DNA from: a virus
Taxonomy: Duplodnaviria; Caudoviricetes
Reading direction: 5' to 3' (one strand)
IMG/VR virus record: IMGVR_UViG_3300037205_000035
Span: 1-63,395 of that record
Length of the DNA: 63,395 nt
The translations under genes and the position numbers were made by a program. Below are positions 12,668 through 57,029 of the stretch, one piece after another. A model generated the notes under the pieces. The model ran no database searches. It was not told the DNA's origin and saw only the letters and a list, made by a program, of their open reading frames with translations. Within the stretch, counting starts at the first letter, position 1. The number at the start of each line of letters is the position of its first letter.

Positions 12668-12770
12668 TCCTGCTATACTTGAGAGCTTACATGTGCTGAT
12701 CGGTTCAGCGCAAGCCTCTGGCGCTTGAGAAACGGTTCAAATCCGTCTTAGCTCTCTGATCTCAGCAGGA
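12668..12770 (+). ncRNA. Y-RNA-like unit 1 (D-like arm, anticodon arm CTG, T arm)
   Basis: TCCTGCT..AGCAGGA and GAGAGC..GCTCTC stems, TACT/GATCT internal loop, TTACATG, CAAGC-CTCTGGC-GCTTG, ACGG-TTCAAAT-CCGT. Confidence 0.75.
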
Positions 12771-18095: not shown

Positions 18096-19400
18096 TTAAG
18101 CCTTTTTGGACTTCGGGGCTACCCATTCCCCTGTAATTTTTGCCAACTGGGTATAGAGCATCTTATCTGTAAGAACACCAGCAAAGCACGACTTGAATGC
18201 TTCACCAATCTTGCTCACGATAGGGTAACTACCGGGTATCGCAAGCTCAGTAACAACCTTACGCATCTCAGTAGCATTGAGCGGTACAGCATCACCCGCA
18301 CCAGCTTTAGCAGCCGCCTTAGCCACAGTTCCAGCTTTCACTTCAACCTTACCTTCTTTGGCTTCAGCTTTCTTCTGTTCCCGCAACTCCTTCAGCTTGT
18401 TAGCCCGCTCTTGAACATCAGCCTCAAGCTTGCTAACTTTTGCCTCAGCTTTCTCAACTTCCTTCTGCTTGATAGCCTTAAGCCGTTCAGCTTCACGAGC
18501 TACTGCTTCAGCCGCTTTGAAAGCCTCTTGAGCCGCTTTCTTAGCTTCATCATCAGTCGCTTTCTTCTTGTCAGCAAACGCCTGCGCCGACCGATCATTA
18601 GCCTTTACAAGAGCATCTACAACCTTATCCGCTTCTGCCTTAGCATCAGCCAAAGCTTTCTTAGCGGCTTCGATCTTCTCGCCCTCCTGAGCAGTTTTCT
18701 TCTCAGATTCCAAGAACTTCGTTTCGTCAGCGTCTTCTTCTTCAAGCCGCTTCAGAGTCTCATTCTTAGCATCATCGTAAATCTCATCCACTTTAGCCTT
18801 AGGATCAATACCTTTAGACTGAGCTACTTTGTATGCTTTCATCAACTCGTACGCAGCCGCAACTCCAACTAAGCCCTCGTGAATGTCCTTTTGAATCTTC
18901 TTGGGCAATTCCAGAAAGCTGATAGTCATGTTCACGAACGAGTTAGATGCGGGCTGAATCTGGTTGCCAACTGCCCGTCGCTTGAACATGGTGCGAATCT
19001 CAATGCGGGGAACACCAGCATCAAGCAGAGCTTTCATAGCTTTTGCATCATCCATTGGAGAGTTGTCTTCCCGCTCAGTGTTGTGCATCAACTGCCGTTT
19101 AACACGGTCAATGTCACTGAGAGGCTCATGAATCTCAGCCGGAATATATAATCCCGCACCTGAATCATTAGCTTTGAGAAGACCAGCCAGCCGGTAATGG
19201 CCGTCGATAACTTCGTGAGTGAAATTCTCATCACCCTCAAGCTCAACAACCTCAATAGCTGTCTGTACTCCCCCCTGCTCGATAATGGAATCCTTCATGG
19301 ACTCCACACGAGTCTTAAGCAACCCGAAACGATAATTCTTGTCTGCCTTGATCCGACTAGGATCAAGCATCCAGATCTGTTTTTCAACTTCAGTATTCAT
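18096..19400 (-). CDS. ParB/Srx-domain protein with long A/K/E coiled-coil tail
   Basis: SMKDSIIEQGGVQTAIEV...VIDGHYRL...HNTEREDNSPMDDAKA; AAAGGA before ATG 19400. Confidence 0.8.
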   Translation of the reverse strand: MNTEVEKQIWMLDPSRIKADKNYRFGLLKTRVESMKDSIIEQGGVQTAIEVVELEGDENFTHEVIDGHYRLAGLLKANDSGAGLYIPAEIHEPLSDIDRVKRQLMHNTEREDNSPMDDAKAMKALLDAGVPRIEIRTMFKRRAVGNQIQPASNSFVNMTISFLELPKKIQKDIHEGLVGVAAAYELMKAYKVAQSKGIDPKAKVDEIYDDAKNETLKRLEEEDADETKFLESEKKTAQEGEKIEAAKKALADAKAEADKVVDALVKANDRSAQAFADKKKATDDEAKKAAQEAFKAAEAVAREAERLKAIKQKEVEKAEAKVSKLEADVQERANKLKELREQKKAEAKEGKVEVKAGTVAKAAAKAGAGDAVPLNATEMRKVVTELAIPGSYPIVSKIGEAFKSCFAGVLTDKMLYTQLAKITGEWVAPKSKKA

Positions 19401-19567: not shown

Positions 19568-19613
19568 TCCAGACTTCCTATGCGGAAGTTTCGGCCTCAG
19601 CCTCATCAGTGGA
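19568..19613 (-). ncRNA. Hammerhead ribozyme 1 (type I)
   Basis: TCCA CTGATGA GGC-TGAG-GCC GAAA CTTCC-GCATA-GGAAG TC/TGGA. Confidence 0.85.
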
Positions 19614-19614
19614 T

Positions 19615-19884
19615 TCAGTAGGTGGGTTTAAAAGCCATGTCATTATCTAGCTTTAACCTCTGGTGGGGTGTAGATTCTATCACTTTAACTATCTGTAGGT
19701 AAGCTGCCCTATCTGTAAGACCCCCCATCATAAGACTAACTAAGGTGCCCCCAATTGCCCTAGTGCCAGGAACAGTAGAAGGTACGGCTAAATCTCTGAT
19801 AAATTTCCGTATCTCTGGGGCTGATAACGGAACTAGTCTATTGTCTTTTTTTGTAGTGGCCACTCGTCGTCTTGTGTCTGCCAT
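19615..19884 (-). CDS. Hypothetical protein
   Basis: GGAG SD within hammerhead 2. Confidence 0.65.
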   Translation of the reverse strand: MADTRRRVATTKKDNRLVPLSAPEIRKFIRDLAVPSTVPGTRAIGGTLVSLMMGGLTDRAAYLQIVKVIESTPHQRLKLDNDMAFKPTY

Positions 19885-19892
19885 ATTTAACT

Positions 19893-19945
19893 CTCCAGAC
19901 CAAGCTAGATAGCTCGGTTTCGCGCTTGTGCGCTCCTCAGTGGAG
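19893..19945 (-). ncRNA. Hammerhead ribozyme 2 (type I)
   Basis: CTCCA CTGAGGA GCGC-ACAA-GCGC GAAA CCGAGCT-ATCT-AGCTTGG TC/TGGAG. Confidence 0.88.
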
Positions 19946-20135
19946 TTACTGAAGCCCTCTTGGTACGTCTGGGTGCCTCAGTTTTAGGTTGTGGTGTAGG
20001 GTAGGTTTTGAAGCCTAAATTCAACTTATGGTAGTGAAGTCTTCCACAAGTTCTACATTCGTAGGTTAGGCTGTTGATATTGATGATGCCCTTATGCCGA
20101 AAGCGGCAATAGAGCTTAACCAGTTTTTCTAGCAT
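19905..20135 (-). CDS. Hypothetical protein (CxxC), 3' end overlaps hammerhead 2
   Basis: AAGGAG SD; YECRTCG. Confidence 0.6.
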   Translation of the reverse strand: MLEKLVKLYCRFRHKGIININSLTYECRTCGRLHYHKLNLGFKTYPTPQPKTEAPRRTKRASVTPLRSAQARNRAI

Positions 20136-20292
20136 TGACTCCTTTCTTGCTGACCTCTGCTAACCTGTCAGCCGTCATAGTGGCAAACCCTTTCTTGACC
20201 TTTGCTTGTCCCCCTTTGCGCCCCGCCTCTGCTCTTATCTTGTGCAGGCGCTGACGCCATTCTTTGAGAGTTTCTGGTTTGCCGTCCTTCAT
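20116..20292 (-). CDS. Small KGG-motif protein, 58 aa, not in the ORF track
   Basis: AEAGRKGGQAKVKKGFATM...EVSKKG. Confidence 0.55.
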   Translation of the reverse strand: MKDGKPETLKEWRQRLHKIRAEAGRKGGQAKVKKGFATMTADRLAEVSKKGVNARKTG

Positions 20293-20472
20293 GATCCCCA
20301 GACAGTGCTCATGGTTTAAGCTCCTTTCTTAGCTCTAGTGCCCGCTTAGCTCTCTGAGCATAGAGAGCTTGAACAATCGGACCACACTTAGTCTCAAAAG
20401 ACTTTGTATGATAGTGAGCTTCAGCAAGCTCAAGAGCACGAAACAACAGAGCGTAATCTGTTTTGTTAATTC

Positions 20473-20652
20473 TCACACCTCCCACCGTTTGACTTGGGTA
20501 TGCAGAGCCATCACAAATTCAGCAGCCATAGGCTCACTGTACTTGTATGCCTCATCATCTGACATGTTGGGTCTTTCATGCTTACCGCTTCGGATGAATG
20601 CAGCCCACTGAAGTAGGAGCTTTTGAAGCTGCTTTATTTCCTTTTGATTCAT
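20473..20652 (-). CDS. Hypothetical protein
   Basis: GAGGTG SD is the 3' strand of stem I of hammerhead 3. Confidence 0.6.
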   Translation of the reverse strand: MNQKEIKQLQKLLLQWAAFIRSGKHERPNMSDDEAYKYSEPMAAEFVMALHTQVKRWEV

Positions 20653-20657
20653 ACTCA

Positions 20658-20706
20658 CCTCTAGGGCCGTAATCATTACAGCCTTTCGCCTTCGCTCATC
20701 AGGAGG
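20658..20706 (-). ncRNA. Hammerhead ribozyme 3 (type I; palindrome in stem III)
   Basis: CCTC CTGATGA GC-GAAG-GC GAAA GGCTGTAATGATTACGGCC CTA/GAGG. Confidence 0.75.
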
Positions 20707-20778
20707 TTATTGCTTTCTCTGGCAGATTACAAAGAACACACCAGCCAGTATCAGGAACAGTAGGGCTATAGCGTGCAT

Positions 20779-21012
20779 TTAGTAGTTTCCTTCAGGATCA
20801 TGGTACTTGTCGATATGCCCAAACTCTAATGACTCATTGAAGATGCGCCTAACAGCAGCTTTTAGTAGCTGTATCTGACTAGTTCGGAATGACCATAGCA
20901 TTGTGCGTGTGCGAAACCTGCCAGCTAGGTTATGGGCTTCCTCAATGAAGTCTCTATTATATGGAACCCTAAGTTGCACACGGGTTTTAGATGTTGAAAG
21001 CTTCATTTTCAT
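20779..21012 (-). CDS. Small hypothetical protein (HARP-like pattern)
   Basis: VPYNRDFIEEAHNLAGRF...WSF. Confidence 0.5.
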   Translation of the reverse strand: MKMKLSTSKTRVQLRVPYNRDFIEEAHNLAGRFRTRTMLWSFRTSQIQLLKAAVRRIFNESLEFGHIDKYHDPEGNY

Positions 21013-21061
21013 AGTTTGTGTTCCTACCCCCTTATGAACCCCTGACCTCCCTTACAGTTCC

Positions 21062-21091
21062 AGTTTAACAGTGTTGAGTGCCTTATGTCAA
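21062..21091 (-). promoter_or_regulatory. Internal sigma70 promoter just downstream of hammerhead 4
   Basis: TTGACA-18-TAAACT with extended TG. Confidence 0.6.
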
Positions 21092-21092
21092 G

Positions 21093-21153
21093 TGGGATTC
21101 CAGACTCCTTATGCAGGAGTTTCGCCTGTTTATGCAGGCTCATCAGTAGCCCA
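21093..21153 (-). ncRNA. Hammerhead ribozyme 4 (type I)
   Basis: TGGG-CTA CTGATGA GCCTG-CATAAA-CAGGC GAAA CTCCT-GCATA-AGGAG TC/TGG-AAT-CCCA. Confidence 0.85.
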
Positions 21154-21445
21154 TATCTCGTTCTTCTTTACAGTCCCAACACTCGGTATATGGATACTTG
21201 CACTTTTCACCACACATAGAGCACGTTCCCGGCTGTTCACCTCTCCGTCTAGCCGCAATTGCTATTTGGTCTGTTCTTGATAGTGGCTGCTTATCTACAC
21301 CCGAAGCAAGTTTTACAGCTTCATCAAGTCGATTCAATGGTACAAACCAGATCTTTTTATTAGCATCCCACTTTCCACCCATATCTTTAAGTTGCTGGCG
21401 GATAGGGTAGGTATTACCAGCAACAGGCTTCATTTCTATTGTCAT
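21143..21445 (-). CDS. DUF5710-like small protein with C-terminal Zn finger
   Basis: TYPIRQQLKDMGGKWD...KIW; CxxC..CxxC. Confidence 0.6.
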   Translation of the reverse strand: MTIEMKPVAGNTYPIRQQLKDMGGKWDANKKIWFVPLNRLDEAVKLASGVDKQPLSRTDQIAIAARRRGEQPGTCSMCGEKCKYPYTECWDCKEERDMGY

Positions 21446-21454
21446 TTACTTTCT

Positions 21455-21500
21455 CCCAGACCGTAATCATTACACGGTTTCGCTTGCGCTCGTCAGTGGG
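21455..21500 (-). ncRNA. Hammerhead ribozyme 5 (type I; palindrome in stem III)
   Basis: CCCA CTGACGA GC-GCAA-GC GAAA CCG-TGTAATGATTA-CGG TC/TGGG. Confidence 0.85.
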
Positions 21501-21797
21501 CTAATCAGTAGCGATCTCGTAATAAAAGCCTTTGGCTGTACGAGTAAACAGGTTCCTTCTTAGGTATATGGGCAGTGCATTATAATACTCTATTTTGTTA
21601 ATGCGCCGCATAATCCTAAAGGGTTGAGGCTCAAACTTATAGATACCCTTTCCTTGCTCATAAACCTCATACTCAACCACATGGATTGAGTCGATAGCTA
21701 ATGCTGTATCTGACACAGCCACCATGAACTTAGACGACTGTACTATGCCTATAGCCTCAGCCCTTGTTAGTTTCTGTTTTGCTGGTTGTGGCGACAC
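21501..21797 (-). CDS. Hypothetical protein
   Basis: Stop abuts hammerhead 5; start abuts the upstream stop. Confidence 0.55.
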   Translation of the reverse strand: MSPQPAKQKLTRAEAIGIVQSSKFMVAVSDTALAIDSIHVVEYEVYEQGKGIYKFEPQPFRIMRRINKIEYYNALPIYLRRNLFTRTAKGFYYEIATD

Positions 21798-22085
21798 TTA
21801 AGTACCTTCAACATCCTGCGAGTACTGAATCTCTGCAACTTTATCATCTAAGATACCATTGCAAGCTTGGCATTCCTCGTCATCACAGCCATCAACATTA
21901 TGTTTATCCAGTGGAATGTATTCCCTTAGAATCTCATCACCACTGAGTAGTGTTACAGGCTCATCGGCCCCCCTACCAGCACCAGCTTTGGATATATCCA
22001 CATACTTGTCATACTCTAAGCCTGCTAAAGTGTGGTTACGCCCAACATAAACAGTCCCAATGTTTCCGACAACTACCTCTATCAT
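21798..22085 (-). CDS. Hypothetical protein
   Basis: GGGAG SD from hammerhead 6. Confidence 0.65.
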   Translation of the reverse strand: MIEVVVGNIGTVYVGRNHTLAGLEYDKYVDISKAGAGRGADEPVTLLSGDEILREYIPLDKHNVDGCDDEECQACNGILDDKVAEIQYSQDVEGT

Positions 22086-22094
22086 ATTTTCTCT

Positions 22095-22148
22095 CCCATA
22101 TGTCGTAACTTGTACGGCATTTCGCTAGATAACTAGCTCATCAGTGGG
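22095..22148 (-). ncRNA. Hammerhead ribozyme 6 (type I)
   Basis: CCCA CTGATGA GCTAG-TTAT-CTAGC GAAA TGCCGTA-CAAGT-TACGACA TA/TGGG. Confidence 0.85.
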
Positions 22149-22889
22149 TTAAATGTAGGCACATCCGGGGGATTTAAGCTCTCTCAGAACATCCAATGCA
22201 AGTTCTGCCGACAATATTAACCACTTATCAGCATCAGCAGAAGCAGCAGCAGCAGAACGAGCAGTATTAGCAGCAGCACGAGCAGCAGCATACACACCAT
22301 CAGCAACATGAGCAGTATCAGCAGCACGAGCAGCAGCAACAGCAGCATAGGCAGCATTAGCACCAGCAGCATAAGCAGCACCAGCAGCATAAGCAGCACC
22401 AGCAGCATCAGCATTAACATCATCATAAGCAGCATTAGCAGCAGCATTAGCAGTATAAGAAGCAGCACGAATAGCAGCAGAAGTACCTTCTGTTTCACAC
22501 CTTAATGCTACATCCAAGCAGGACTGATTATTTGGGAAAATCTGCCTAAACAATTGGGGGATTAAAACTTGGATAGTCTTTTGAGCTAATTTTTCAGAAA
22601 ATACTCCACCATCAACTACCCCCCTACTACCTACTTGTGCAATTCCTATGTTACGTAGACCCGTAGCTCTAGCTTTTGGTGATGACCAGTCTGAGTCATT
22701 GAGCCTAATTTCATATGCTCTAACAGCAGGCTCAACACAAGTAGGATTATCACCGTGGGGTAAATCAAGGGCATAACAAATAGCGGCCTCAATGTCCATC
22801 TGACCATTTCTATTTCCCACCCCCTTACACAGACCCCGACTAAGGGCTTCGTCAAATTTAGGAATCAACGTCTCAAAATTAATCTCCAT
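22149..22889 (-). CDS. Ala-rich (AAYAA/AADAA) repeat protein 1
   Basis: Globular N-terminus plus GCT-codon Ala tract. Confidence 0.7.
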   Translation of the reverse strand: MEINFETLIPKFDEALSRGLCKGVGNRNGQMDIEAAICYALDLPHGDNPTCVEPAVRAYEIRLNDSDWSSPKARATGLRNIGIAQVGSRGVVDGGVFSEKLAQKTIQVLIPQLFRQIFPNNQSCLDVALRCETEGTSAAIRAASYTANAAANAAYDDVNADAAGAAYAAGAAYAAGANAAYAAVAAARAADTAHVADGVYAAARAAANTARSAAAASADADKWLILSAELALDVLRELKSPGCAYI

Positions 22890-22894
22890 AATCT

Positions 22895-22950
22895 CTCCTT
22901 CTTCAGTACTCGATTCACGAGTAGACTAGGTTGTTAGCCTAGTTTCGGAG
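22895..22950 (-). ncRNA. Hammerhead ribozyme 7 (type II; extra A after A9)
   Basis: CTCC GAAA CTAGG-CTAACAA-CCTAG TC/TACTCG-TGAAT-CGAGTA CTGAAGA A GGAG. Confidence 0.8.
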
Positions 22951-23026
22951 TGTTTTACCGCGACTTGGTCCTCGGTGAGATAGTAGCGGGATGTGGCTTT
23001 GGCTTCGGTGATGGTTTGGCGGCCGT

Positions 23027-23218
23027 TCATGCGGACACCTCCGGTACTCCAGCAGCTTCCAGTAATTCGACATCGCCCTTGTCGATGTAGGGGACCAGAG
23101 ATTGAAGCTCGGCCAGTTCGCCGTAACTGATTCGCTCCGCCCGCAGTTCGCCGCGAAGATACTCCAGGCGTGCAGAGACTTCTTTCTCAAACAGCTTCTC
23201 ATCAGTTAATGTTGCCAT
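23027..23218 (-). CDS. Hypothetical protein
   Basis: GAGGA SD overlapping the core/stem II of hammerhead 8. Confidence 0.65.
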   Translation of the reverse strand: MATLTDEKLFEKEVSARLEYLRGELRAERISYGELAELQSLVPYIDKGDVELLEAAGVPEVSA

Positions 23219-23222
23219 GTTG

Positions 23223-23274
23223 TCCTCATCAGTACGCTTGTTGCGTAGACAGAGCGATTAAGCTCTGTTTCGGA
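23223..23274 (-). ncRNA. Hammerhead ribozyme 8 (type II)
   Basis: TCC GAAA CAGAGC-TTAATC-GCTCTG TC/TACGC-AACAA-GCGTA CTGATGA GGA. Confidence 0.85.
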
Positions 23275-23295
23275 GTTTGTGGTAAAATAGGTACC

Positions 23296-23754
23296 ATGAC
23301 ACACCGTAAAGTATGCCCAAAATGCCTTAAGAATCTCAGCCTAGATAAGTTTAAGCCTAGACCAAACGGAACTTATTCATACTGCTATGCTTGCGAGCTA
23401 TCTTATTATAAAGATTACAACAGGAAAAGATATGCAAGCCCTAAAGCTAGACAAGATGAGCTTAAGAGAACCAAAGACCGTTATCACGCTACATTCAAAC
23501 CAGACCGCATAGCCCGTAAGAAAGAGCTTATACGAATGATGGGCGGGAAGTGTGAACGCTGCGGATACTGCAAAAGTGCAGCGGCCTTAGACTTCCACCA
23601 TAAAGATCCAAAGACTAAGCGAAGAACCGTGTCCCACTTGATAGCCTTAAGATCAACAGATGCTTGGTCAGAGGCAAAGATAGAGGCTTCAGACTGTGAA
23701 CTTCTATGCAGCAATTGCCACAGAGAAGAAACATACCCCGGATGGGATATGTAA
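23296..23754 (+). CDS. HNH endonuclease, antisense to the surrounding operon
   Basis: CPKC..CYAC; GGKCERCGY..ALDFHH..LLCSNCHREE; TGGTAAAAT extended -10 just upstream of ATG 23296. Confidence 0.85.
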   Translation: MTHRKVCPKCLKNLSLDKFKPRPNGTYSYCYACELSYYKDYNRKRYASPKARQDELKRTKDRYHATFKPDRIARKKELIRMMGGKCERCGYCKSAAALDFHHKDPKTKRRTVSHLIALRSTDAWSEAKIEASDCELLCSNCHREETYPGWDM

Positions 23755-23808
23755 GCCCTGACTACCTTTATAGGTAGTTTCGCGTAATGATTACGCTCAT
23801 CAGAAGGC
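23755..23808 (-). ncRNA. Hammerhead ribozyme 9 (type I; palindrome is stem II)
   Basis: GCCTT CTGATGA GCGTAATCATTACGC GAAA CTACCT-ATAA-AGGTAG TC/AGGGC. Confidence 0.88.
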
Positions 23809-24960
23809 AAGTTGCAACACTTTACCAGCAGCCCTATCCATAGCATCTCGCTTGTCAGCGTAGTTTTGCTGAGAGAGTCTGGTAACTCCTGATGCAAAAC
23901 CCCAAGCTGAGTTAGGTTCATTGCCATGCAAGTCTGCATGACGGTCAGCTAACACATAAGCTTCTTCGCAGTCTTTGCGTGAGAGGCCAAAGGACTTACC
24001 ATATACGAAGTCTACGACCTCTTCTTTAGACTGCCCTAACAGCTTTTGTTTGGCCTGTCTAATCCGAATTTCATCATCGGATGCAGCAGTTTCCATCCTA
24101 GCCGTTATTGAAGCCATTGCTTCAGAGAATGCCCTACGTGCTTCCCCTGTGTGGCGGATTGTCACCTCACCTATGGTTTTGGTGTTCCAACAGATGTGAT
24201 TTCCGCACACCGATTCATACAGGAACAAAGTAGCTCTGAATCTAGCAGCGCCAACTTCTGAATTGCTCCAGAACACCCCACGATAGAGCGTTTCCCCATC
24301 ACCACCATTGATAGCCCGATCTTCATTGACCTGAAAGATAAAGCAATCATGGTCTGAAGCATATAGGCCGCTAGGTGATATCTCATCCCCGACCTTGACA
24401 CCTAGAGATGGGTGTGCCGACTTACGCAACACATCAGCCTCAGTAGCCTGACGTGTGGGCACATTCTCTAAGCCGCAAGGCCGAGCAGGGGGAGTCTTCC
24501 AACCTTCGTTCTCCTCCAACGCAAGCGCGAGGTTCGCTATCTCATAATTCCAGATGCGCGAGTACCTATCACTAGTAATGCAACGAACATCAAGCCCACC
24601 GTTCTGATGGAACATGATTTGCTGTCTACCACTAAGCTTAGACAAGCCGTGATTTAAGCAGTCCGCTGCAATTGGGGCGGGAAGCTGACGAAGATAAGAA
24701 GCTGGAGCTTCACAGAGATTGCTGAACTGCCCGAAAGCGTAATGCTGAAACTTCGCACCATGCTGACGAGTGGGACCATAGAGCAACAGGTCATTATCGT
24801 CAGTAGGTTGTACGGAGCAGGTAGAAAGCGCAAGTTCTTTTACTTTGCTTTCTTCTGCATAAGTGCGAGTCTTTTCCAGCAATTCGCTGAGTGTCCAGAA
24901 TCTTTGATCAGCGGGGCGGACTGCCCATTGACGGGAAGCCGCCACTAAGTTTGTACTCAT
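23800..24960 (-). CDS. DUF932-like phage/plasmid protein
   Basis: RCITSDRYSRIWN, WSNSEVG, YESVCGN, IRHTG. Confidence 0.7.
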   Translation of the reverse strand: MSTNLVAASRQWAVRPADQRFWTLSELLEKTRTYAEESKVKELALSTCSVQPTDDNDLLLYGPTRQHGAKFQHYAFGQFSNLCEAPASYLRQLPAPIAADCLNHGLSKLSGRQQIMFHQNGGLDVRCITSDRYSRIWNYEIANLALALEENEGWKTPPARPCGLENVPTRQATEADVLRKSAHPSLGVKVGDEISPSGLYASDHDCFIFQVNEDRAINGGDGETLYRGVFWSNSEVGAARFRATLFLYESVCGNHICWNTKTIGEVTIRHTGEARRAFSEAMASITARMETAASDDEIRIRQAKQKLLGQSKEEVVDFVYGKSFGLSRKDCEEAYVLADRHADLHGNEPNSAWGFASGVTRLSQQNYADKRDAMDRAAGKVLQLAF

Positions 24961-24978
24961 GTGTCGTCCTTTATATTT

Positions 24979-25039
24979 GATGTGATCTTCAGCAATAGGC
25001 CATCAACCCTATTGAACGCGAGTTAATCGCGTTTCACTC
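24979..25039 (-). ncRNA. Hammerhead ribozyme 10 (type II, weak stem II)
   Basis: GT GAAA CGCGA-TTAAC-TCGCG TT/CAATAGG-GTTGATGG-CCTATTG CTGAAGA TCAC. Confidence 0.6.
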
Positions 25040-25273
25040 TTCTGCCCTCGCTATTCTGCCAACTTTCTTTACCCAATCAGGTGAATCATCAGCTAGTGCT
25101 GAGGGTAGATTATCGGCAAGAATGAGACACAAGCTATACCAGTTGTCATGCATACGTTCTGGGGCACGATATGGATAAGTGTGTCTCATAAAGTCATCAA
25201 TAGCAGAGGATGCCGGATGATCCGGTGGAATCTCCGCTTTGATTCTGTCAACTACTTCACCAAAGTTACGCAT
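25034..25273 (-). CDS. Hypothetical protein (start revised to ATG 25273)
   Basis: GAGGT SD from hammerhead 11. Confidence 0.65.
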   Translation of the reverse strand: MRNFGEVVDRIKAEIPPDHPASSAIDDFMRHTYPYRAPERMHDNWYSLCLILADNLPSALADDSPDWVKKVGRIARAEE

Positions 25274-25279
25274 ATTTTT

Positions 25280-25342
25280 ACCTCTAACACCGTAATCATT
25301 ACACGGTGTTTTCGCTTGATTCACACAAGCTGATCACGAGGT
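25280..25342 (-). ncRNA. Hammerhead ribozyme 11 (type I; G3-C8 core variant; palindrome in stem III)
   Basis: ACCTC GTGATCA GCTTG-TGTGAAT-CAAGC GAAA ACACCG-TGTAATGATTA-CGGTGT TA/GAGGT. Confidence 0.8.
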
Positions 25343-25525
25343 TTAGTCCTGCTTCGTATATACGTTCAAACCAAGAGTTGCCCCAGTGTTAGGGTCAACC
25401 TGAATGTTTCCCTGTGTTGTGGCAATAACCGTAGTCTTGCCCGATGCGCTCTTGCCATGCCGTTCAGATAAGTCAACCTCAATCGTGAGGATCTTACCTT
25501 TGATCGTAGTCTTTACATTAACCAT
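25343..25525 (-). CDS. Small phage protein
   Basis: LTIEVDLS..HGKSASGKTTVIATTQGN; AAGGA SD. Confidence 0.7.
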   Translation of the reverse strand: MVNVKTTIKGKILTIEVDLSERHGKSASGKTTVIATTQGNIQVDPNTGATLGLNVYTKQD

Positions 25526-25547
25526 GTTTTGTCCTTTGAGGTTGAAT

Positions 25548-25579
25548 ACCCCGACCGTAATGATTACGGTTTCGTCTTG

Positions 25580-25598
<19 letters not shown>
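25548..25598 (-). ncRNA. Hammerhead ribozyme 12 (type I; palindrome is stem III)
   Basis: ACCTC CTGACGA GTCTT-AAC-AAGAC GAAA CCGTAATCATTACGG TC/GGGGT. Confidence 0.85.
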
Positions 25599-26527
<929 letters not shown>

Positions 26528-26536
26528 ATGTTTCAT

Positions 26537-26585
26537 CTCCATACACGCCCACATTAGCGTGTTTCGCTTGCGCTCATCAGTGGAG
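26537..26585 (-). ncRNA. Hammerhead ribozyme 13 (type I)
   Basis: CTCCA CTGATGA GC-GCAA-GC GAAA CACGCT-AATGTG-GGCGTG TA/TGGAG. Confidence 0.85.
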
Positions 26586-26900
26586 CTACACATCAGCATA
26601 ATGATATGTAGTATGTTTCTCTGGCTTCTTCTCGTGGAGTGTGACCCACACATGCCGAACGTAGTAATCTTCGGGCGTGTTTGATCTCTCATCATCATAT
26701 TTCATGCGTTTCTCAAACACCCATCCAATTGTGCGGACACCTTTTACAGTGTCTATGTGAACTTTTGAGATACAGCGGCCATACTCACGCTGTAGACCTT
26801 TAAACAGCTTGCCTTTGTCATCAGTCCACGCCTCAAACACGCCGGATTCACCAAATTGATACCCTTTGGTTTCGTTGGTGTACGTCTCTGAAATGTACAT
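26586..26900 (-). CDS. Hypothetical protein (start revised to ATG 26900)
   Basis: GGAG SD from hammerhead 14; stop abuts hammerhead 13. Confidence 0.7.
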   Translation of the reverse strand: MYISETYTNETKGYQFGESGVFEAWTDDKGKLFKGLQREYGRCISKVHIDTVKGVRTIGWVFEKRMKYDDERSNTPEDYYVRHVWVTLHEKKPEKHTTYHYADV

Positions 26901-26905
26901 ATCAT

Positions 26906-26952
26906 CTCCATACGCTTTGCAGCGTTTCATCCTTTCGGAATCATCAGTGGAG
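26906..26952 (-). ncRNA. Hammerhead ribozyme 14 (type I; U.U at base of stem II)
   Basis: CTCCA CTGATGA T-TCC-GAAA-GGA-T GAAA CGCT-GCAA-AGCG TA/TGGAG. Confidence 0.8.
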
Positions 26953-27092
26953 TATGCCTTTTATCCGTCAAGGCTAAGGCCGATATTCTCGTGACTCGGA
27001 CCAACGCTATCTTTTTACCTGAGAGTTCACTTGCGCGTGGTTAGCAAGACCGTTGCGGTAGAGGATACATTAACAGGGGAAAGATAGAAAAC

Positions 27093-27383
27093 TTAGGCTA
27101 CTTGCTTGCGATTGTCTTTTGTTACGTATGCTGGATCATTTAGCGGACAATCAGCAGCAGTATGAAACTGTGGCGCATCACTTGCGTATATCTGGCTGTA
27201 ACTCTTGAGGCCGTATTTGATCGGCACTCTGAAGTCATCAGGCCGTCTAACCCAAGTTTGGGTTTCGCCATTACGTCTCCAGTGCTCAGTGTGTTCCTTG
27301 ATACCACCATTGGGACCAATGACACGAGTACAAGTGCCGAAGTGAAACTCGTGGGCAGTTAAAGCTTGCTCTTTTGTAATCAT
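27093..27383 (-). CDS. Hypothetical protein
   Basis: WRRNGETQTWVRRPDDFRVPIKYGL; GGAG SD from hammerhead 15. Confidence 0.7.
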   Translation of the reverse strand: MITKEQALTAHEFHFGTCTRVIGPNGGIKEHTEHWRRNGETQTWVRRPDDFRVPIKYGLKSYSQIYASDAPQFHTAADCPLNDPAYVTKDNRKQVA

Positions 27384-27390
27384 TACGTTT

Positions 27391-27447
27391 CTCCCGACAC
27401 TAGACTAGCTAGTGTTTCGCTCGAATTTCACGAGCTAATCATGAGAG
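27391..27447 (-). ncRNA. Hammerhead ribozyme 15 (type I; A3-U8 core variant)
   Basis: CTCTC ATGATTA GCTCG-TGAAATT-CGAGC GAAA CACTAG-CTAGT-CTAGTG TC/GGGAG. Confidence 0.8.
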
Positions 27448-27448
27448 T

Positions 27449-27685
27449 TTAGCTGTATATAGGGAACACGGAGTCAACCATACTCAGAATATCTGACTTA
27501 GTGTGCCCCAGGTCATAAAGCTTCCTAAGTTGCACACGCAACTCAGTAGCTTGCACCAATTTTACTTCAGTCCAGATAGGATCAATGAAGTCTTTAGCTT
27601 CTTTCAATCCAACTGTCACGTTGCACGTTTCTTGAATGTGAACACGCAACTTCTTAATCGCATCAATCTTGTTTGTAGCTGTCAT
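27449..27685 (-). CDS. Small protein with ribosomal L7/L12 C-terminal-like motif
   Basis: NKIDAIKKLR...VGLKEAKDFID; start revised to ATG 27685. Confidence 0.6.
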   Translation of the reverse strand: MTATNKIDAIKKLRVHIQETCNVTVGLKEAKDFIDPIWTEVKLVQATELRVQLRKLYDLGHTKSDILSMVDSVFPIYS

Positions 27686-27691
27686 GTGATC

Positions 27692-27740
27692 TCCCGACAC
27701 CAGCATTTAACGCTAGTGTTTCGCATTGCTCGTCAGGGGA
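27692..27740 (-). ncRNA. Hammerhead ribozyme 16 (type I)
   Basis: TCCC CTGACGA GC-AAT-GC GAAA CACTAGCG-TTAAA-TGCTGGTG TC/GGGA. Confidence 0.8.
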
Positions 27741-27971
27741 TTAGCGCCGTCGCTTTGTAGCCCGTCGCTCATTCGTCATACAGCCGCTGCACTGATTCTT
27801 TGTTCCTTTTGTGCTCGCAGCACAAGTACAAGGTTCAATTTTAGTCGATGGCACACGCCTTGCACTATCCCTATGTCTCTGACCATTAAGATTATGGCTA
27901 GGCATAGTTCGTATACCTGCATCTGAAAGACTCTTACCACGTTCTAACTTGGGTATTGCCGATGTGTTCAT
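27741..27971 (-). CDS. Small basic hypothetical protein
   Basis: Bounded exactly by hammerheads 17 and 16. Confidence 0.6.
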   Translation of the reverse strand: MNTSAIPKLERGKSLSDAGIRTMPSHNLNGQRHRDSARRVPSTKIEPCTCAASTKGTKNQCSGCMTNERRATKRRR

Positions 27972-27981
27972 TTACTTAATC

Positions 27982-28030
27982 TCCCGACTGCTATCTCTAG
28001 CAGTTTCGTCTGTTAAGACTCATCAGGGGA
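27982..28030 (-). ncRNA. Hammerhead ribozyme 17 (type I)
   Basis: TCCC CTGATGA GTCT-TAAC-AGAC GAAA CTGCTA-GAGA-TAGCAG TC/GGGA. Confidence 0.88.
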
Positions 28031-28031
28031 T

Positions 28032-28799
28032 TTAAGCTTGCATACCATACTGTTCTGTAATATACCGCCGCAAGCTTTTAGTCAGTTGCTCCAATCCATA
28101 CTTCTCAAATGTCCCGCCGAAAGCTTTGGTTATACCTTCAGGGTATCGACTAGGCGATTCAGGACTCCATGCTATAGCTAAAGCGTGCTGTCCCACTGGA
28201 GCCACTCGGAATCTCTTAACTGCCCTAATCAGCATAGATGGAACATAGTACTTCTCATCTAAGTGAGAATCCAAGTGGGATGTATAGTGATTGACTTCAC
28301 CTAATGACTGCCCGTTCTGAGTAATCATTAAGCAATACCAGCAGTCACCATTCGACGGTGCGGGAACAGAGCCAGCTACGAAAGCTTTCATGTAACCTTC
28401 CACGTAAGTTTTGATCCTACGTTTCAGTTTCAAAAGCTTTGCAGGGTCTTCACCTTCACCAGTCACACTACCGTCCGAATGCACCATAATGCCGTCATCG
28501 AATGCGAATTGCTTTGCATTGTCTGACCAGCTTTGGCCTAATCGCATGTACCATATACCTCTGTCAGTGTAAAACCGCGCGATGTTTTGAAACTCATTCA
28601 TGCGCTGTTTCGTGGTGACAGTTCGCCAACCACCGGAATCAAAGCTCACATCGCCGTTTGGCTTGAAAGTCATGATTACAGTATTGTGTAGGCGTATGTT
28701 GATGTCATCTCCATTACGCTCTAAGTACGTGTTGTTTGCGATCTTTCGGCGGGTAGAACATCTCCCAGTTAGTTGATCGTTTGCCGTCTGATAGTTCAT
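28032..28799 (-). CDS. Phage hypothetical protein
   Basis: RLHNT...DSGGWRTVTTKQRMN; bounded by hammerheads 18 and 17. Confidence 0.7.
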   Translation of the reverse strand: MNYQTANDQLTGRCSTRRKIANNTYLERNGDDINIRLHNTVIMTFKPNGDVSFDSGGWRTVTTKQRMNEFQNIARFYTDRGIWYMRLGQSWSDNAKQFAFDDGIMVHSDGSVTGEGEDPAKLLKLKRRIKTYVEGYMKAFVAGSVPAPSNGDCWYCLMITQNGQSLGEVNHYTSHLDSHLDEKYYVPSMLIRAVKRFRVAPVGQHALAIAWSPESPSRYPEGITKAFGGTFEKYGLEQLTKSLRRYITEQYGMQA

Positions 28800-28806
28800 A
28801 GTCTCT

Positions 28807-28865
28807 CCATACCACCGTAATCGTTACAGTGGTTTCATCGCTGGACTAGAGCGAATCATCAGTGG
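28807..28865 (-). ncRNA. Hammerhead ribozyme 18 (type I; palindrome variant in stem III)
   Basis: CCA CTGATGA T-TCGCT-CTAGTCC-AGCGA-T GAAA CCACTGTAACGATTACGGTGG TA/TGG. Confidence 0.8.
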
Positions 28866-55340: not shown

Positions 55341-57029
55341 ATGGCACTAGACCCAGCTATCAGCTTAGGCTTTAAGCCCCCAGTAATAAATCAGGTTAAT
55401 CCTGTAGACACTATCACGAAAGCACTTAGCTTGCGGGATATGATGCAGCAGCAGCAACTTCGTCAGGCTCAGACTGAAGATTACGCTGCTCAGGTTCAAC
55501 AGAGGCAGTCGGATTTGCAGGATCAACAAACTTTCCAGAATGGAATGCAGAATCCAGCGACTAGACTTAAAGTAGCTTCTGGGGATTTCTCTGATTTTGA
55601 GGGAAATATGCAGGAAAAGAATCTTGACCCAATAAGGGCTAGCAGGCTGTCATATATATCAGGTTTAGCTAAACAAAACACGGATGATTTGAATAATGTT
55701 AACTCCTCCCTACCTGTAGTAGCAAAAGCTATCAATGGCCTTAAAGCACTTAGAAAAGATGATGGCACACTAGATTTAAATAAGGTTAATGATGCTTTAC
55801 CCGGAACACTAGCTACACTATCCCCGGCATTAAAGGCACTTAAAGCTGACCCATCAGTAATGCCCAAGACTATTACAGATGAGTCTCAGCTAGATGATTT
55901 AGCCTCACATGTAGGAGCGGCATACGAGTTAAATAATCAGGCGCTGACTATGAAAGAGGCGAAGTCTAAGGCTGATGAAGCTGCACAGAAAGCTATACAG
56001 GCTAAGAATGATGCTACTAAGTCTGGTCTGTATAATCCGGCTGCTGGCACTAATGTTTATAACTTAGCTGATGTGGCTGGAGCTACCCCGGCTAATCCCC
56101 CCAAGCCTACACTGAGTATCCCCATTAAATCTGAGGGAGAGATACCGCTAGGAGCAGATAGGGTTGCACAGTCTAATCAAATGCTGGCTGATAGATATCA
56201 AGGGGTGCATGGCAAAAACTCAGCACTTCCCCCTGCTTACACACTGCCCGATAATGCTACTCAGAAAGACTATGATCGTGTTCATCAGGCATTACAGTCT
56301 GAGGAGCAGGCTGCACAGTCTAGGGCACAGTTTGCTCAGAGTGAAGGGATTCGCCAAGCACTACTGGCTAATGCTCAGTCATCTACTAAGGACAGAGAGG
56401 ATGCCCAAAGTAGGAAACCTGTACAAGCCACTGAACCTAGTACGGGTAAATTAGTCTTTACCAACTATGGAGATGCAGTGTCTAAGGGATACAAGGATAT
56501 CGTAGATTCGACTGGGACTGAACAAAATAAGATAAACGCTGCCCGTCAGTGGATACCCCTAGCATCTAAGATGTCTGATACTTCTGATCCAGATAAGATG
56601 GGAACTCTCCAGCTTATCCAAGAGTTGGACAAGAAAAAAGCTCTTGGACCCTTTGCTAGTAGGTTTAATGAAGTTATGACTGGTAAGGTTGGGTCTGGGG
56701 ATCTTACTAGTGACCCTGAAACTAGGGCCATGTATTCTGCTCTAAGAACCAAGCTTGAGTTAGCCAATAGCCTACTCCTTAATGTCCACGTTGGACAGAG
56801 GGGTGGAAGCTACATGATGGAGCAGTTTAAGAATCTAGCTGACTCTGGGAAGATGAGTGCCGACACCTTAAAGAATGGGGTTAAGTCGGAACTTAATTAT
56901 GCCGAAGATAGGGCTATGTCTCCATCACGCCCAGCACAGGGGCAGTACAAGGTTGGTTGGACGTATGGAGACAAGGAGTATCTAGGTGGAGATCCTAAGA
57001 GCTTAGATAGTTGGAGGCCACATTTCTAA
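55341..57029 (+). CDS. Ejection/internal virion protein
   Basis: MALDPAISLG, Q-rich; position. Confidence 0.6.
   Translation: MALDPAISLGFKPPVINQVNPVDTITKALSLRDMMQQQQLRQAQTEDYAAQVQQRQSDLQDQQTFQNGMQNPATRLKVASGDFSDFEGNMQEKNLDPIRASRLSYISGLAKQNTDDLNNVNSSLPVVAKAINGLKALRKDDGTLDLNKVNDALPGTLATLSPALKALKADPSVMPKTITDESQLDDLASHVGAAYELNNQALTMKEAKSKADEAAQKAIQAKNDATKSGLYNPAAGTNVYNLADVAGATPANPPKPTLSIPIKSEGEIPLGADRVAQSNQMLADRYQGVHGKNSALPPAYTLPDNATQKDYDRVHQALQSEEQAAQSRAQFAQSEGIRQALLANAQSSTKDREDAQSRKPVQATEPSTGKLVFTNYGDAVSKGYKDIVDSTGTEQNKINAARQWIPLASKMSDTSDPDKMGTLQLIQELDKKKALGPFASRFNEVMTGKVGSGDLTSDPETRAMYSALRTKLELANSLLLNVHVGQRGGSYMMEQFKNLADSGKMSADTLKNGVKSELNYAEDRAMSPSRPAQGQYKVGWTYGDKEYLGGDPKSLDSWRPHF

Follow-up and report, generated by a model that had tools for sequence, protein, structure and literature searches.

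Would a phage transcript cut itself, gene after gene, into separate messages? The question is raised by positions 19568–28865 (minus strand) of the IMG/VR virus record IMGVR_UViG_3300037205_000035, where most gene junctions are predicted to fold into a hammerhead ribozyme. We analyzed the whole record (hereafter the window), which is linear, 63,395 bases in length and rated 100% complete; the hammerhead-bearing part is the distal 9.3 kb of a minus-strand operon of about 14 kb, made up of small orphan genes. Our reading, to which we give roughly three chances in four, is that 17 functional hammerheads lie at 16 of 21 junctions in this part of the operon and are self-cleaving. The best-supported role for them would be self-processing of the polycistronic RNA into mostly single-gene mRNAs, because the motifs are genuine by the sequence tests described below, lie on the coding strand and occupy 16/21 junctions.

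Hammerhead motifs on the coding strand

Type I hammerheads were sought with a descriptor that required a NUGANNA core with Watson-Crick partners at positions 3 and 8, a stem II of at least 2 base pairs (bp), GAAA, a stem III of at least 5 bp including the A15.1-U16.1 pair, an H17 other than G and a stem I of at least 3 bp; one stem defect was allowed. Over the whole window, the minus strand yielded 15 motifs, each of them inside 19568–28865, and the plus strand yielded none. Dinucleotide shuffles of the whole window (n = 40, both strands) gave 0.575 type I motifs on average and 3 at most. With perfect stems and a canonical core demanded, six type I motifs remained on the minus strand, against none on the plus strand. 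The type II descriptor found two copies on the minus strand (22895–22950 and 23223–23274) and none on the plus strand.

The original prediction, made from the letters of this stretch, had listed 15 type I and three type II motifs. All 15 of the former were recovered on the minus strand, with positions and cut sites in agreement (for example, after 19572). Two of the three type II copies are intact; the third (24972–25040, minus strand, type II order, GUU) is missed by the descriptor, its stem II reads U.U, C-G, A.A, C-G, and core G12 and A13 are paired in its minimum-energy fold. This element is probably degenerate, and the solid total predicted from the sequence is 17 hammerheads rather than 18. 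The cleavage triplets of the 17 are as first listed: GUC in nine type I and both type II copies, GUA in three, and AUA, UUA and CUA in one each. In AT-rich contigs, a first, looser descriptor over-called (type II or III, variant cores, long loops), and the comparison with other contigs was counted under a strict rule. Two type III matches were rejected: that at 23775–23827 is a mere alternative reading of one of the type I copies (23755–23808), and that at 18534–18615 is implausible, with a loop of 54 nucleotides (nt).

We also built a covariance model, R2, that contains no window sequence. Viral contigs were scanned for the core signature, four external type I hammerheads of identical geometry formed a gap-free seed, and the seed gathered 32 external viral type I hammerheads. 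Searched over the whole window with filters off, R2 found 15/15 type I copies at 14.1–45.7 bits, 14 of them with E ≤ 0.0017 and one with E = 0.024; on the plus strand there was no match below E = 1. One extra weak match on the minus strand (55827–55863; 14.5 bits, E = 0.017) is antisense to a structural gene and negative by the descriptor, and is probably due to chance.

In the R2-fitted alignment of the 15 type I copies, 88.5% of the cells are paired, compared to 64.4% in shuffled alignments (0/500 reach the observed value) and 27–43% with slid partners. Both sides are changed in 11 of 15 pairs, and the covariation score is 0.603, versus 0.185 in the shuffles. Our own count at structurally numbered positions agrees, each position of stems II and III showing 3–6 types of pair; the pairing percentage of this count is partly circular, because the descriptor itself demands pairing. 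As originally stated, the stems vary while their pairing is kept: the identity of the stem II–III segments has a median of 0.61 and is 0.79 at the highest, so the copies are not recent duplicates or products of simple duplication. MAFFT alignments of the window copies and of the external copies had their 3′ halves out of register and were left unused.

The full core (C3 U4 G5 A6 N7 G8 A9, G12 A13 A14, the A15.1-U16.1 pair and an H17 other than G), together with a legal NUH triplet, is kept in 17/17 motifs. CUGANGA is canonical in 15 of the 17; the other two, AUGAUUA (27447 copy; copies are named by their higher coordinate) and GUGAUCA (25342 copy), are compensated at positions 3 and 8, and no one-sided change was found. 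The 3-8 pair exists only in the active hammerhead fold. Next to the core, where pairing served as a criterion in PMC3088659, pairs 1.1-2.1 and 15.1-16.1 are formed in 15/15 type I copies and 10.1-11.1 is G-C in 13/15. When the 17 segments were folded in isolation, 12 adopted the full three-way fold as minimum-energy or centroid structure.

The 17 motifs are given below with predicted cleavage sites; SD stands for the Shine-Dalgarno sequence, and the palindrome is a genome-wide repeat described later.

28807–28865, minus strand: type I hammerhead with just 3 bp in stem I, and with U10.1.U11.1; cut after 28810 (GUA); R2 14.1 bits, the weakest of the 15; stems II and III fold, stem I is marginal; palindrome in stem III.
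27982–28030, minus strand: type I hammerhead; cut after 27986 (GUC), then directly GGGAG and ATG; R2 44.5 bits; the minimum-energy structure is the full three-way fold.
27692–27740, minus strand: type I hammerhead, stem II of 2 bp; cut after 27696 (GUC), directly followed by GGGAG; R2 29.0 bits; an alternative fold is the minimum-energy structure.
27391–27447, minus strand: type I hammerhead with core AUGAUUA (A3-U8); cut after 27396 (GUC), directly followed by GGGAG; R2 23.7 bits; full fold.
26906–26952, minus strand: type I hammerhead with U10.1.U11.1; cut after 26911 (GUA), then UGGAG; R2 35.3 bits; full fold.
26537–26585, minus strand: type I hammerhead, stem II of 2 bp with a GCAA loop; cut after 26542 (GUA), then UGGAG; R2 27.5 bits; the minimum-energy structure is an alternative fold.
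25548–25598, minus strand: type I hammerhead that shares 18 nt with the 3′ end of the upstream gene; cut after 25553 (GUC), SD 17 nt downstream of the cut; stem III is the palindrome; R2 45.7 bits, the highest of the 15; minimum-energy fold with a shifted outer helix.
25280–25342, minus strand: type I hammerhead with core GUGAUCA (G3-C8); cut after 25285 (UUA), then GAGGU; R2 17.0 bits; full fold, z-score −4.48; palindrome in stem III.
23755–23808, minus strand: type I hammerhead with the upstream stop codon in its core; cut after 23760 (GUC), no gene start follows; R2 36.0 bits; the centroid structure is the full fold; palindrome as stem II.
23223–23274, minus strand: type II hammerhead; cut after 23248 (GUC); the 5′ strand of closing stem II, GGA, is part of the SD GAGGA; RF02276 28.2 bits, under the gathering score of 37; full fold.
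22895–22950, minus strand: type II hammerhead in which A9 is followed by an additional A; cut after 22924 (GUC); the 5′ strand of closing stem II, GGAG, is the SD; full fold.
22095–22148, minus strand: type I hammerhead; cut after 22099 (AUA), then UGGGAG; R2 24.2 bits; full fold.
21455–21500, minus strand: type I hammerhead, stem II of 2 bp with a GCAA loop; cut after 21459 (GUC), then UGGGAG; R2 28.7 bits; full fold; palindrome within stem III.
21100–21149, minus strand: type I hammerhead with the upstream stop codon in its core; stem I of 3 bp; cut after 21103 (GUC), no SD follows; R2 33.5 bits; only stems II and III fold.
20657–20707, minus strand: type I hammerhead; stem II has 2 bp, and stem III carries the palindrome and a bulged C; cut after 20662 (CUA), then GAGGU; R2 19.4 bits; full fold.
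19893–19945, minus strand: type I hammerhead whose sequence doubles as the final 13 codons of the gene upstream; cut after 19898 (GUC), then UGGAG; R2 32.6 bits; full fold.
19568–19613, minus strand: last type I hammerhead; cut after 19572 (GUC), followed by a GGAG...palindrome...CUCC hairpin and no nearby start codon; R2 40.1 bits; full fold.

By eye, loop II resembles the common viral type in the 28030 and 25598 copies only. The 140-nt spacer before the 26952 copy (27093–26953, minus strand) opens, also by eye, with a stretch like a stem I strand and a mutated core; it may be a decayed extra hammerhead copy.

Junction anatomy and the fate of the transcript

Junctions were counted on our own heuristic gene calls, two doubtful 39-codon open reading frames (ORFs) being left out; 29235–19400 then has 21 junctions between 22 genes. 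Of the 21, 16 carry one or more solid hammerheads, and one of these junctions has two, which flank an antisense HNH gene. Among the remaining junctions, one carries the degenerate element and four have none, three of these lying between overlapping or abutting genes. The motifs start 0–2 nt past the upstream stop codon or overlap it. Downstream, 11 of 15 type I copies have GGAG, GGGAG or GAGG 0–1 nt past the cut, with the start codon 5–9 nt after the SD; in both type II copies, the SD is the 3′-side strand of the closing stem II. Altogether, the SD is located inside the closing helix in 13/17 motifs (11/15 type I and 2/2 type II). The exceptions are the 25598 copy, whose SD lies farther on, the 19613 copy, which is the last, and the 23808 and 21149 copies, which are followed by other features:

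23731–23752, minus strand: terminator-like hairpin, directly after the 23808 hammerhead; consensus match only.
23170–23754, plus strand: HNH endonuclease gene (PHROG 2255, E = 1.8e-25), antisense in the operon and flanked by one hammerhead of type I and one of type II.
21062–21091, minus strand: promoter-like site (TTGACA, 18 nt, TAAACT, with TG; 10/12 positions), just after the 21149 hammerhead; consensus match only.

Under self-processing, the host polymerase would probably transcribe the operon, because no phage polymerase was found among the proteins examined: the 38 distinct proteins scanned, of about 102 ORFs, include no phage RNA polymerase, RNA ligase or polynucleotide kinase. The 46–63-nt segment of each junction would fold as it is transcribed, stems II and III forming as local hairpins and the short closing helix coming last, and the RNA would then cut itself after H17. 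Hammerhead cleavage is established, for the family, to leave a 2′,3′-cyclic phosphate and a 5′-OH; here the former would end the upstream product and the latter would begin the downstream one. Each cistron would in this way become its own mRNA, with two hairpins and the cyclic phosphate at its 3′ end and a minimal 5′-OH leader that starts at the ribosome-binding site (RBS). Cleavage would insulate each small gene from its neighbors in stability and translation, and gene cassettes could be swapped without retuning. The earlier claim of a transcript that cuts itself into mostly single-gene mRNAs stands as far as the coding strand and 16/21 junctions are concerned; the cutting itself is a prediction from sequence. 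There is precedent in tandem prophage hammerheads, which, according to the text of PMC3088659, cleave during in vitro transcription of ∼2-kb polycistronic fragments.

The position of the SD leads to another possible reading, which is compatible with self-processing as an added layer: the closing helix pairs the SD with an anti-SD-like strand (CUCCA, UCCC or ACCUC), and translation would be licensed only after the cut and melting of the helix. As modeled, this is a tentative idea that we hold to be possible but doubtful. Consistent with it, the SD forms the 3′ strand of the closing helix in the 13 motifs mentioned above, and an SD-like motif is present within 8 nt past the cut in 10/13 strict type I copies here, compared to 2/28 in sampled type I hammerheads of other viruses. 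Two unrelated viral contigs (L149 and L175) have the same SD-coupled design; the set that holds them, however, was preselected by a pattern that fixes TCCA before the core. Across 14 junctions, the predicted probability of an unpaired SD averages 0.39 before cleavage and 0.60 after it; only 6 of the 14 show a clear gain (at least 0.18), whereas the change is below 0.1 at seven and one shows a fall of 0.19. Active engineered ribozymes that mask an RBS raise reporter output 5- to ∼100-fold in Escherichia coli, as described in passages of PMC5052635. Nevertheless, a helix of 3–5 bp is a weak mask against the ribosome, and a cut beside the SD may be mere compaction.

Elsewhere, type I hammerheads of L021, L069, L163, L090 and other viral loci have a stem I whose 5′ strand ends in TAA before the core (GTCTAA, GCATAA, ATCTAA). 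The upstream stop codon may be built into these motifs, a gene-boundary coupling unlike that of this operon.

Relatives, strain variants and genomic setting

Relatives were collected through homologues of two operon proteins (41–70% identity), which gave three viral loci and 13 from metagenomes. In these loci, the descriptor and R2 found no hammerheads, with L012 as the single exception; Rfam at E ≤ 1 found nothing in L001–L003, other ribozyme classes included, and R2 found no hammerhead in the whole records G002 (96% complete), G003 (100% complete) and G009. The architecture is not shared by the relatives beyond one L012 copy, a type I hammerhead of the same design (40.8 bits). L012 and L011 are near-twins, ∼90–95% identical, and L012:6499–6717 (∼220 nt, a small ORF of ∼62 codons plus the type I hammerhead) replaces L011:6718–6793 (∼76 nt, a plain hairpin). 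By sequence comparison, this difference is a direct example of a gene gained or lost with its ribozyme.

At the relatives' junctions that we looked at, the order is stop codon, GNRA-capped hairpin, extended SD (AAUGGAG) and start codon. Their junction motif CGAAUGGAG, considered as a new element, was rejected, being only the extended SD behind the hairpin. A search with the exact stem II signature returned one unrelated contig, without a hammerhead.

Closer strains were also found. Contigs from two peat runs of different studies are identical to the window; the X2 contigs, an independent assembly from another study, have no differences over at least 10 of the 17 motifs, and the X1 peat run may be the source sample of the window. 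One lake-water contig joins 19574 to 19933, with one gene lost and one hammerhead in place of two; another joint, 22956 to 23759, removes one type II hammerhead and one gene along with the HNH gene. The HNH block (23170–23754) looks like a mobile insertion, since one lake-water contig lacks the whole block.

Both lake-water joints fall at hammerheads, and the L012/L011 difference is a segment of an ORF plus a hammerhead. Such joints could mean that hammerheads mainly mark exchangeable accessory-gene cassettes and help them recombine at the DNA level; microhomology would be present at every junction, because the core is shared and the closing helix is constrained by the SD. In the text of PMC3088659, too, the identity of the flanked genes is not constant. 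However, the contigs that show the joints are single ones of low depth, matched at 80% likeness, some with short sides, and orthologues of the flanked genes are present in hammerhead-free relatives. Microhomology also leaves unexplained why every catalytic nucleotide and the tertiary 3-8 pair are retained. We regard cassette boundaries as an unlikely main role.

The readings may also be joined, the hammerheads serving as portable adaptors of a gene-cassette system. The ribozyme of each cassette would close on the next SD with an anti-SD mimic, cleavage would license translation and isolate the cassettes, and the near-uniform closing helices would let cassettes recombine at the ribozymes. In its boldest extension, an excised cistron would re-form a hammerhead across its ends, and the reverse reaction or an RtcB-type ligase would turn it into an exonuclease-proof circular mRNA. 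Ends compatible with circularization occur in 8/14 adjacent pairs and in 88/210 ordered pairs, which is no enrichment, and in the cases treated in the text of Perreault et al. (PMC3088659) circular or spliced products were not detected. With the circular mRNA included, we consider this joint reading quite improbable.

Several points weigh against functional hammerheads and self-processing. Rfam at its gathering score has no match in the window, although seven hammerhead-family matches lie below it in the region, all on the minus strand. RF00163 sees two copies at ∼21 bits (best 21.4, cut-off 34); on clear phage type I copies of another contig (G006) it gives 31.9, 23.4 and 19.4 bits, all under the cut-off. 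Rfam was taken as insensitive rather than negative, because RF00163 also misses these clear phage copies. Within the motifs, 10.1/11.1 is U.U in 2/15 type I copies (28865 and 26952), stem II has only 2 bp in four copies, the closing helices are just 3–5 bp, and the extra A after A9 in the type II copy 22950 is a weaker point. No tertiary contact between stem I and loop II was identified, and no search aimed at such contacts was made. Fast cleavage at low Mg2+ needs a contact of this kind or a pseudoknot. With short closing helices and no contact identified, cleavage at cellular Mg2+ could be slow. In isolated folding, 5/17 segments do not prefer the hammerhead (two form stems II and III only, three a shifted or alternative fold). 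The gene calls, promoter sites and terminator sites are products of our own heuristics. None of the RNA runs listed contains the stretch, and two from the study of X2 have next to none of its sequence words. Finally, the nearest relatives are without hammerheads at the same junctions, and their function is therefore dispensable or replaceable.

The strongest use of these points would be to take the motifs as inactive look-alikes: pairs of hairpins for stabilization or RNase recognition, or decayed copies, with any processing left to host RNases. The plain GNRA-capped hairpins at the same junctions of relatives, the decayed look of 24972–25040, the short closing helices and the sub-threshold Rfam scores are all consistent with this. 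On the other hand, it has to face 17/17 full cores with legal NUH triplets while the stems vary freely, compensation at G8 for both C3 departures, and the absence of copies on the opposite strand and in other operons. In favor of functional hammerheads, type I hammerheads of RNA viruses with a helix II of 1–2 bp and without the typical loop-loop contacts self-cleave in vitro and in vivo, according to the text of PMC13725137. Inactive look-alikes appear very improbable to us, and self-cleaving hammerheads are retained as the reading of the array.

Around the operon, the genome is that of a tailed phage, with terminase, portal and head closure matches among the proteins of the contig:

1–17.7 kb, plus strand: replication block with helicase, ERCC4 nuclease, UDG-family protein, family A DNA polymerase and exonuclease.
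∼32.4 down to 18.1 kb (∼14 kb), minus strand: small-gene operon, nearly all genes without a family match.
∼32.1–33.4 kb, both strands: divergent promoter region; the plus strand has a perfect sigma-70 consensus, the minus strand weak candidates only.
32.5–63.4 kb, plus strand: structural block with terminase, P22-like portal and head closure.

The operon may be an early one, as suggested by its small ORFan genes that adjoin the divergent promoter region. Weak family matches in it are to DUF932, Kyano_Gp96 and DUF5710, and a ParB-like protein is encoded at its end. Megablast against named phages gave no match to the window, and a terminase search of viral contigs gave no relative. The portal is ∼30% identical to P22-like portals from phages of various Proteobacteria.

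Two operon proteins (25580–26527 and 22149–22889, both minus strand), neither with a family match, begin with an N-terminal part that looks folded and continue into very long, low-complexity repeats rich in alanine (A, Y, D, G). The repeats are encoded by GCTGCT-type repeats, which are the cause of spurious Rfam isrG and miRNA matches and of a huge read depth from other organisms. In the plus-strand block, the 524-residue protein of 13228–14802 matches PHROG 850 'RNA-binding protein' (E = 7e-7) and has no Pfam match; its gene adjoins the sole tRNA gene of the phage, tRNA-Gln (CTG; 12683–12756, plus strand).

The palindrome is GTAATSATTAC (extended form, YGTAATSATTACR). It occurs 64 times at ≤1 mismatch and 37 times exactly, versus 1.83 expected, which is about one per kb in both orientations (e.g. 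7175, 8355, 10625, 42561, 45062, 48592 and 55318); 23 of the 64 are intergenic, whereas intergenic sequence is 11% of the genome. Five hammerheads have it as stem III and one has it as stem II, and it is equally dense in relatives without hammerheads; L001, L002, L010 and L012 carry it as well. The palindrome is probably a DNA-level protein-binding or processing site.

The array among known systems

Under the strict rule, the window has 15 motifs, compared to at most three in each of 80 unsorted viral stretches with a core signature (641 kb), of which 51 have none, 22 one, 3 two and 4 three. In a second set, selected for TCCA before the core, there are up to six type I model matches in 14 kb (L174). 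By these sequence comparisons, the array is real and the largest that we found, and its kind is already known. The operon offers a natural test bed for the role of phage hammerheads, with 17 predicted ribozymes in one transcript and a natural variety of cores (A3-U8, G3-C8, U.U at 10.1/11.1), of stem II lengths (2–6 bp) and of topologies (two). Since its relatives have orthologous genes with plain hairpins, it can be tested whether hammerheads serve mRNA stability, free the RBS or are mere cassette borders. As the relatives have a hairpin before the SD, hammerheads could arise by elaborating such a hairpin; the array suggests this plausible origin, and no new kind of system.

The comparison that was first drawn, with the early mRNA of phage T7, is a fair description of how processing would work. 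In T7, host RNase III cuts double-stranded stems of the early polycistronic mRNA and leaves a 5′-phosphate and a 3′-OH. In both cases, a long transcript is cut at structured intercistronic sites and the mRNAs keep a 3′ hairpin; the T7 enzyme is a host protein, whereas here the RNA would cut itself and leave a 5′-OH and a 2′,3′-cyclic phosphate. A ribozyme engineered as an insulator is RiboJ, and ribozymes engineered to mask an RBS are reportedly the subject of Wieland and Hartig 2008. The RBS-masking ribozymes in the passages of Felletti et al. (2016, PMC5052635) lie just upstream of the SD, set the 5′ end of the mRNA and can free the RBS when they cut; the ribozymes of the operon have the same position and may act likewise. 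The engineered ones are, however, designed, one per gene and with extended helices, whereas the SD-coupled hammerheads here are natural, occur 13 times per transcript and close on helices of 3–5 bp. The type I hammerhead of a fusarivirus, as described in the text from the de la Pena laboratory (2026, PMC13725137), similarly has a short helix II, takes up a whole intergenic region of 66 nt and has its cut 7 nt ahead of the next start codon; it differs in belonging to a eukaryotic RNA virus, at a single site, for a subgenomic RNA and with no SD logic.

The closest known arrangement is that of Perreault et al. (2011, PMC3088659), whose text describes several hammerheads that flank individual prophage genes and proposes processing into single-gene mRNAs; passages of de la Pena et al. 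(2017, PMC6155905) and Weinberg et al. (2019, PMC6765202) restate clustered prophage or phage hammerheads. What hammerheads do in bacteria and phages is still described as elusive in the passages of PMC6155905 (2017), PMC6765202 (2019) and PMC13725137 (2026). The original prediction knew of no described operon with this density; the arrangement itself has been known since 2011, and the copy number per operon stands out. Coding-strand hammerheads flanking single genes or short blocks, which define such arrays, are found here at 16/21 junctions. The literature on phage hammerheads that we searched describes no larger array and no SD coupling (many subscription papers, figures and supplements lay outside the search). 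Like the operon studied here, the clusters in the text of Perreault et al. have coding-strand hammerheads of mixed topology between small, non-conserved phage genes and show C3-G8 covariation, reported there as natural U3-A8 and seen here as A3-U8 and G3-C8. Those clusters are triple or tandem in the text (figures and supplements may show more), versus 17 motifs here, and the passages on them contain no mention of Shine-Dalgarno sequences (0 occurrences), which are located in the closing helix here. What is distinctive of this operon is its copy number, the SD in the closing helix, the plain hairpins of the nearest relatives and the strain joints at hammerheads.

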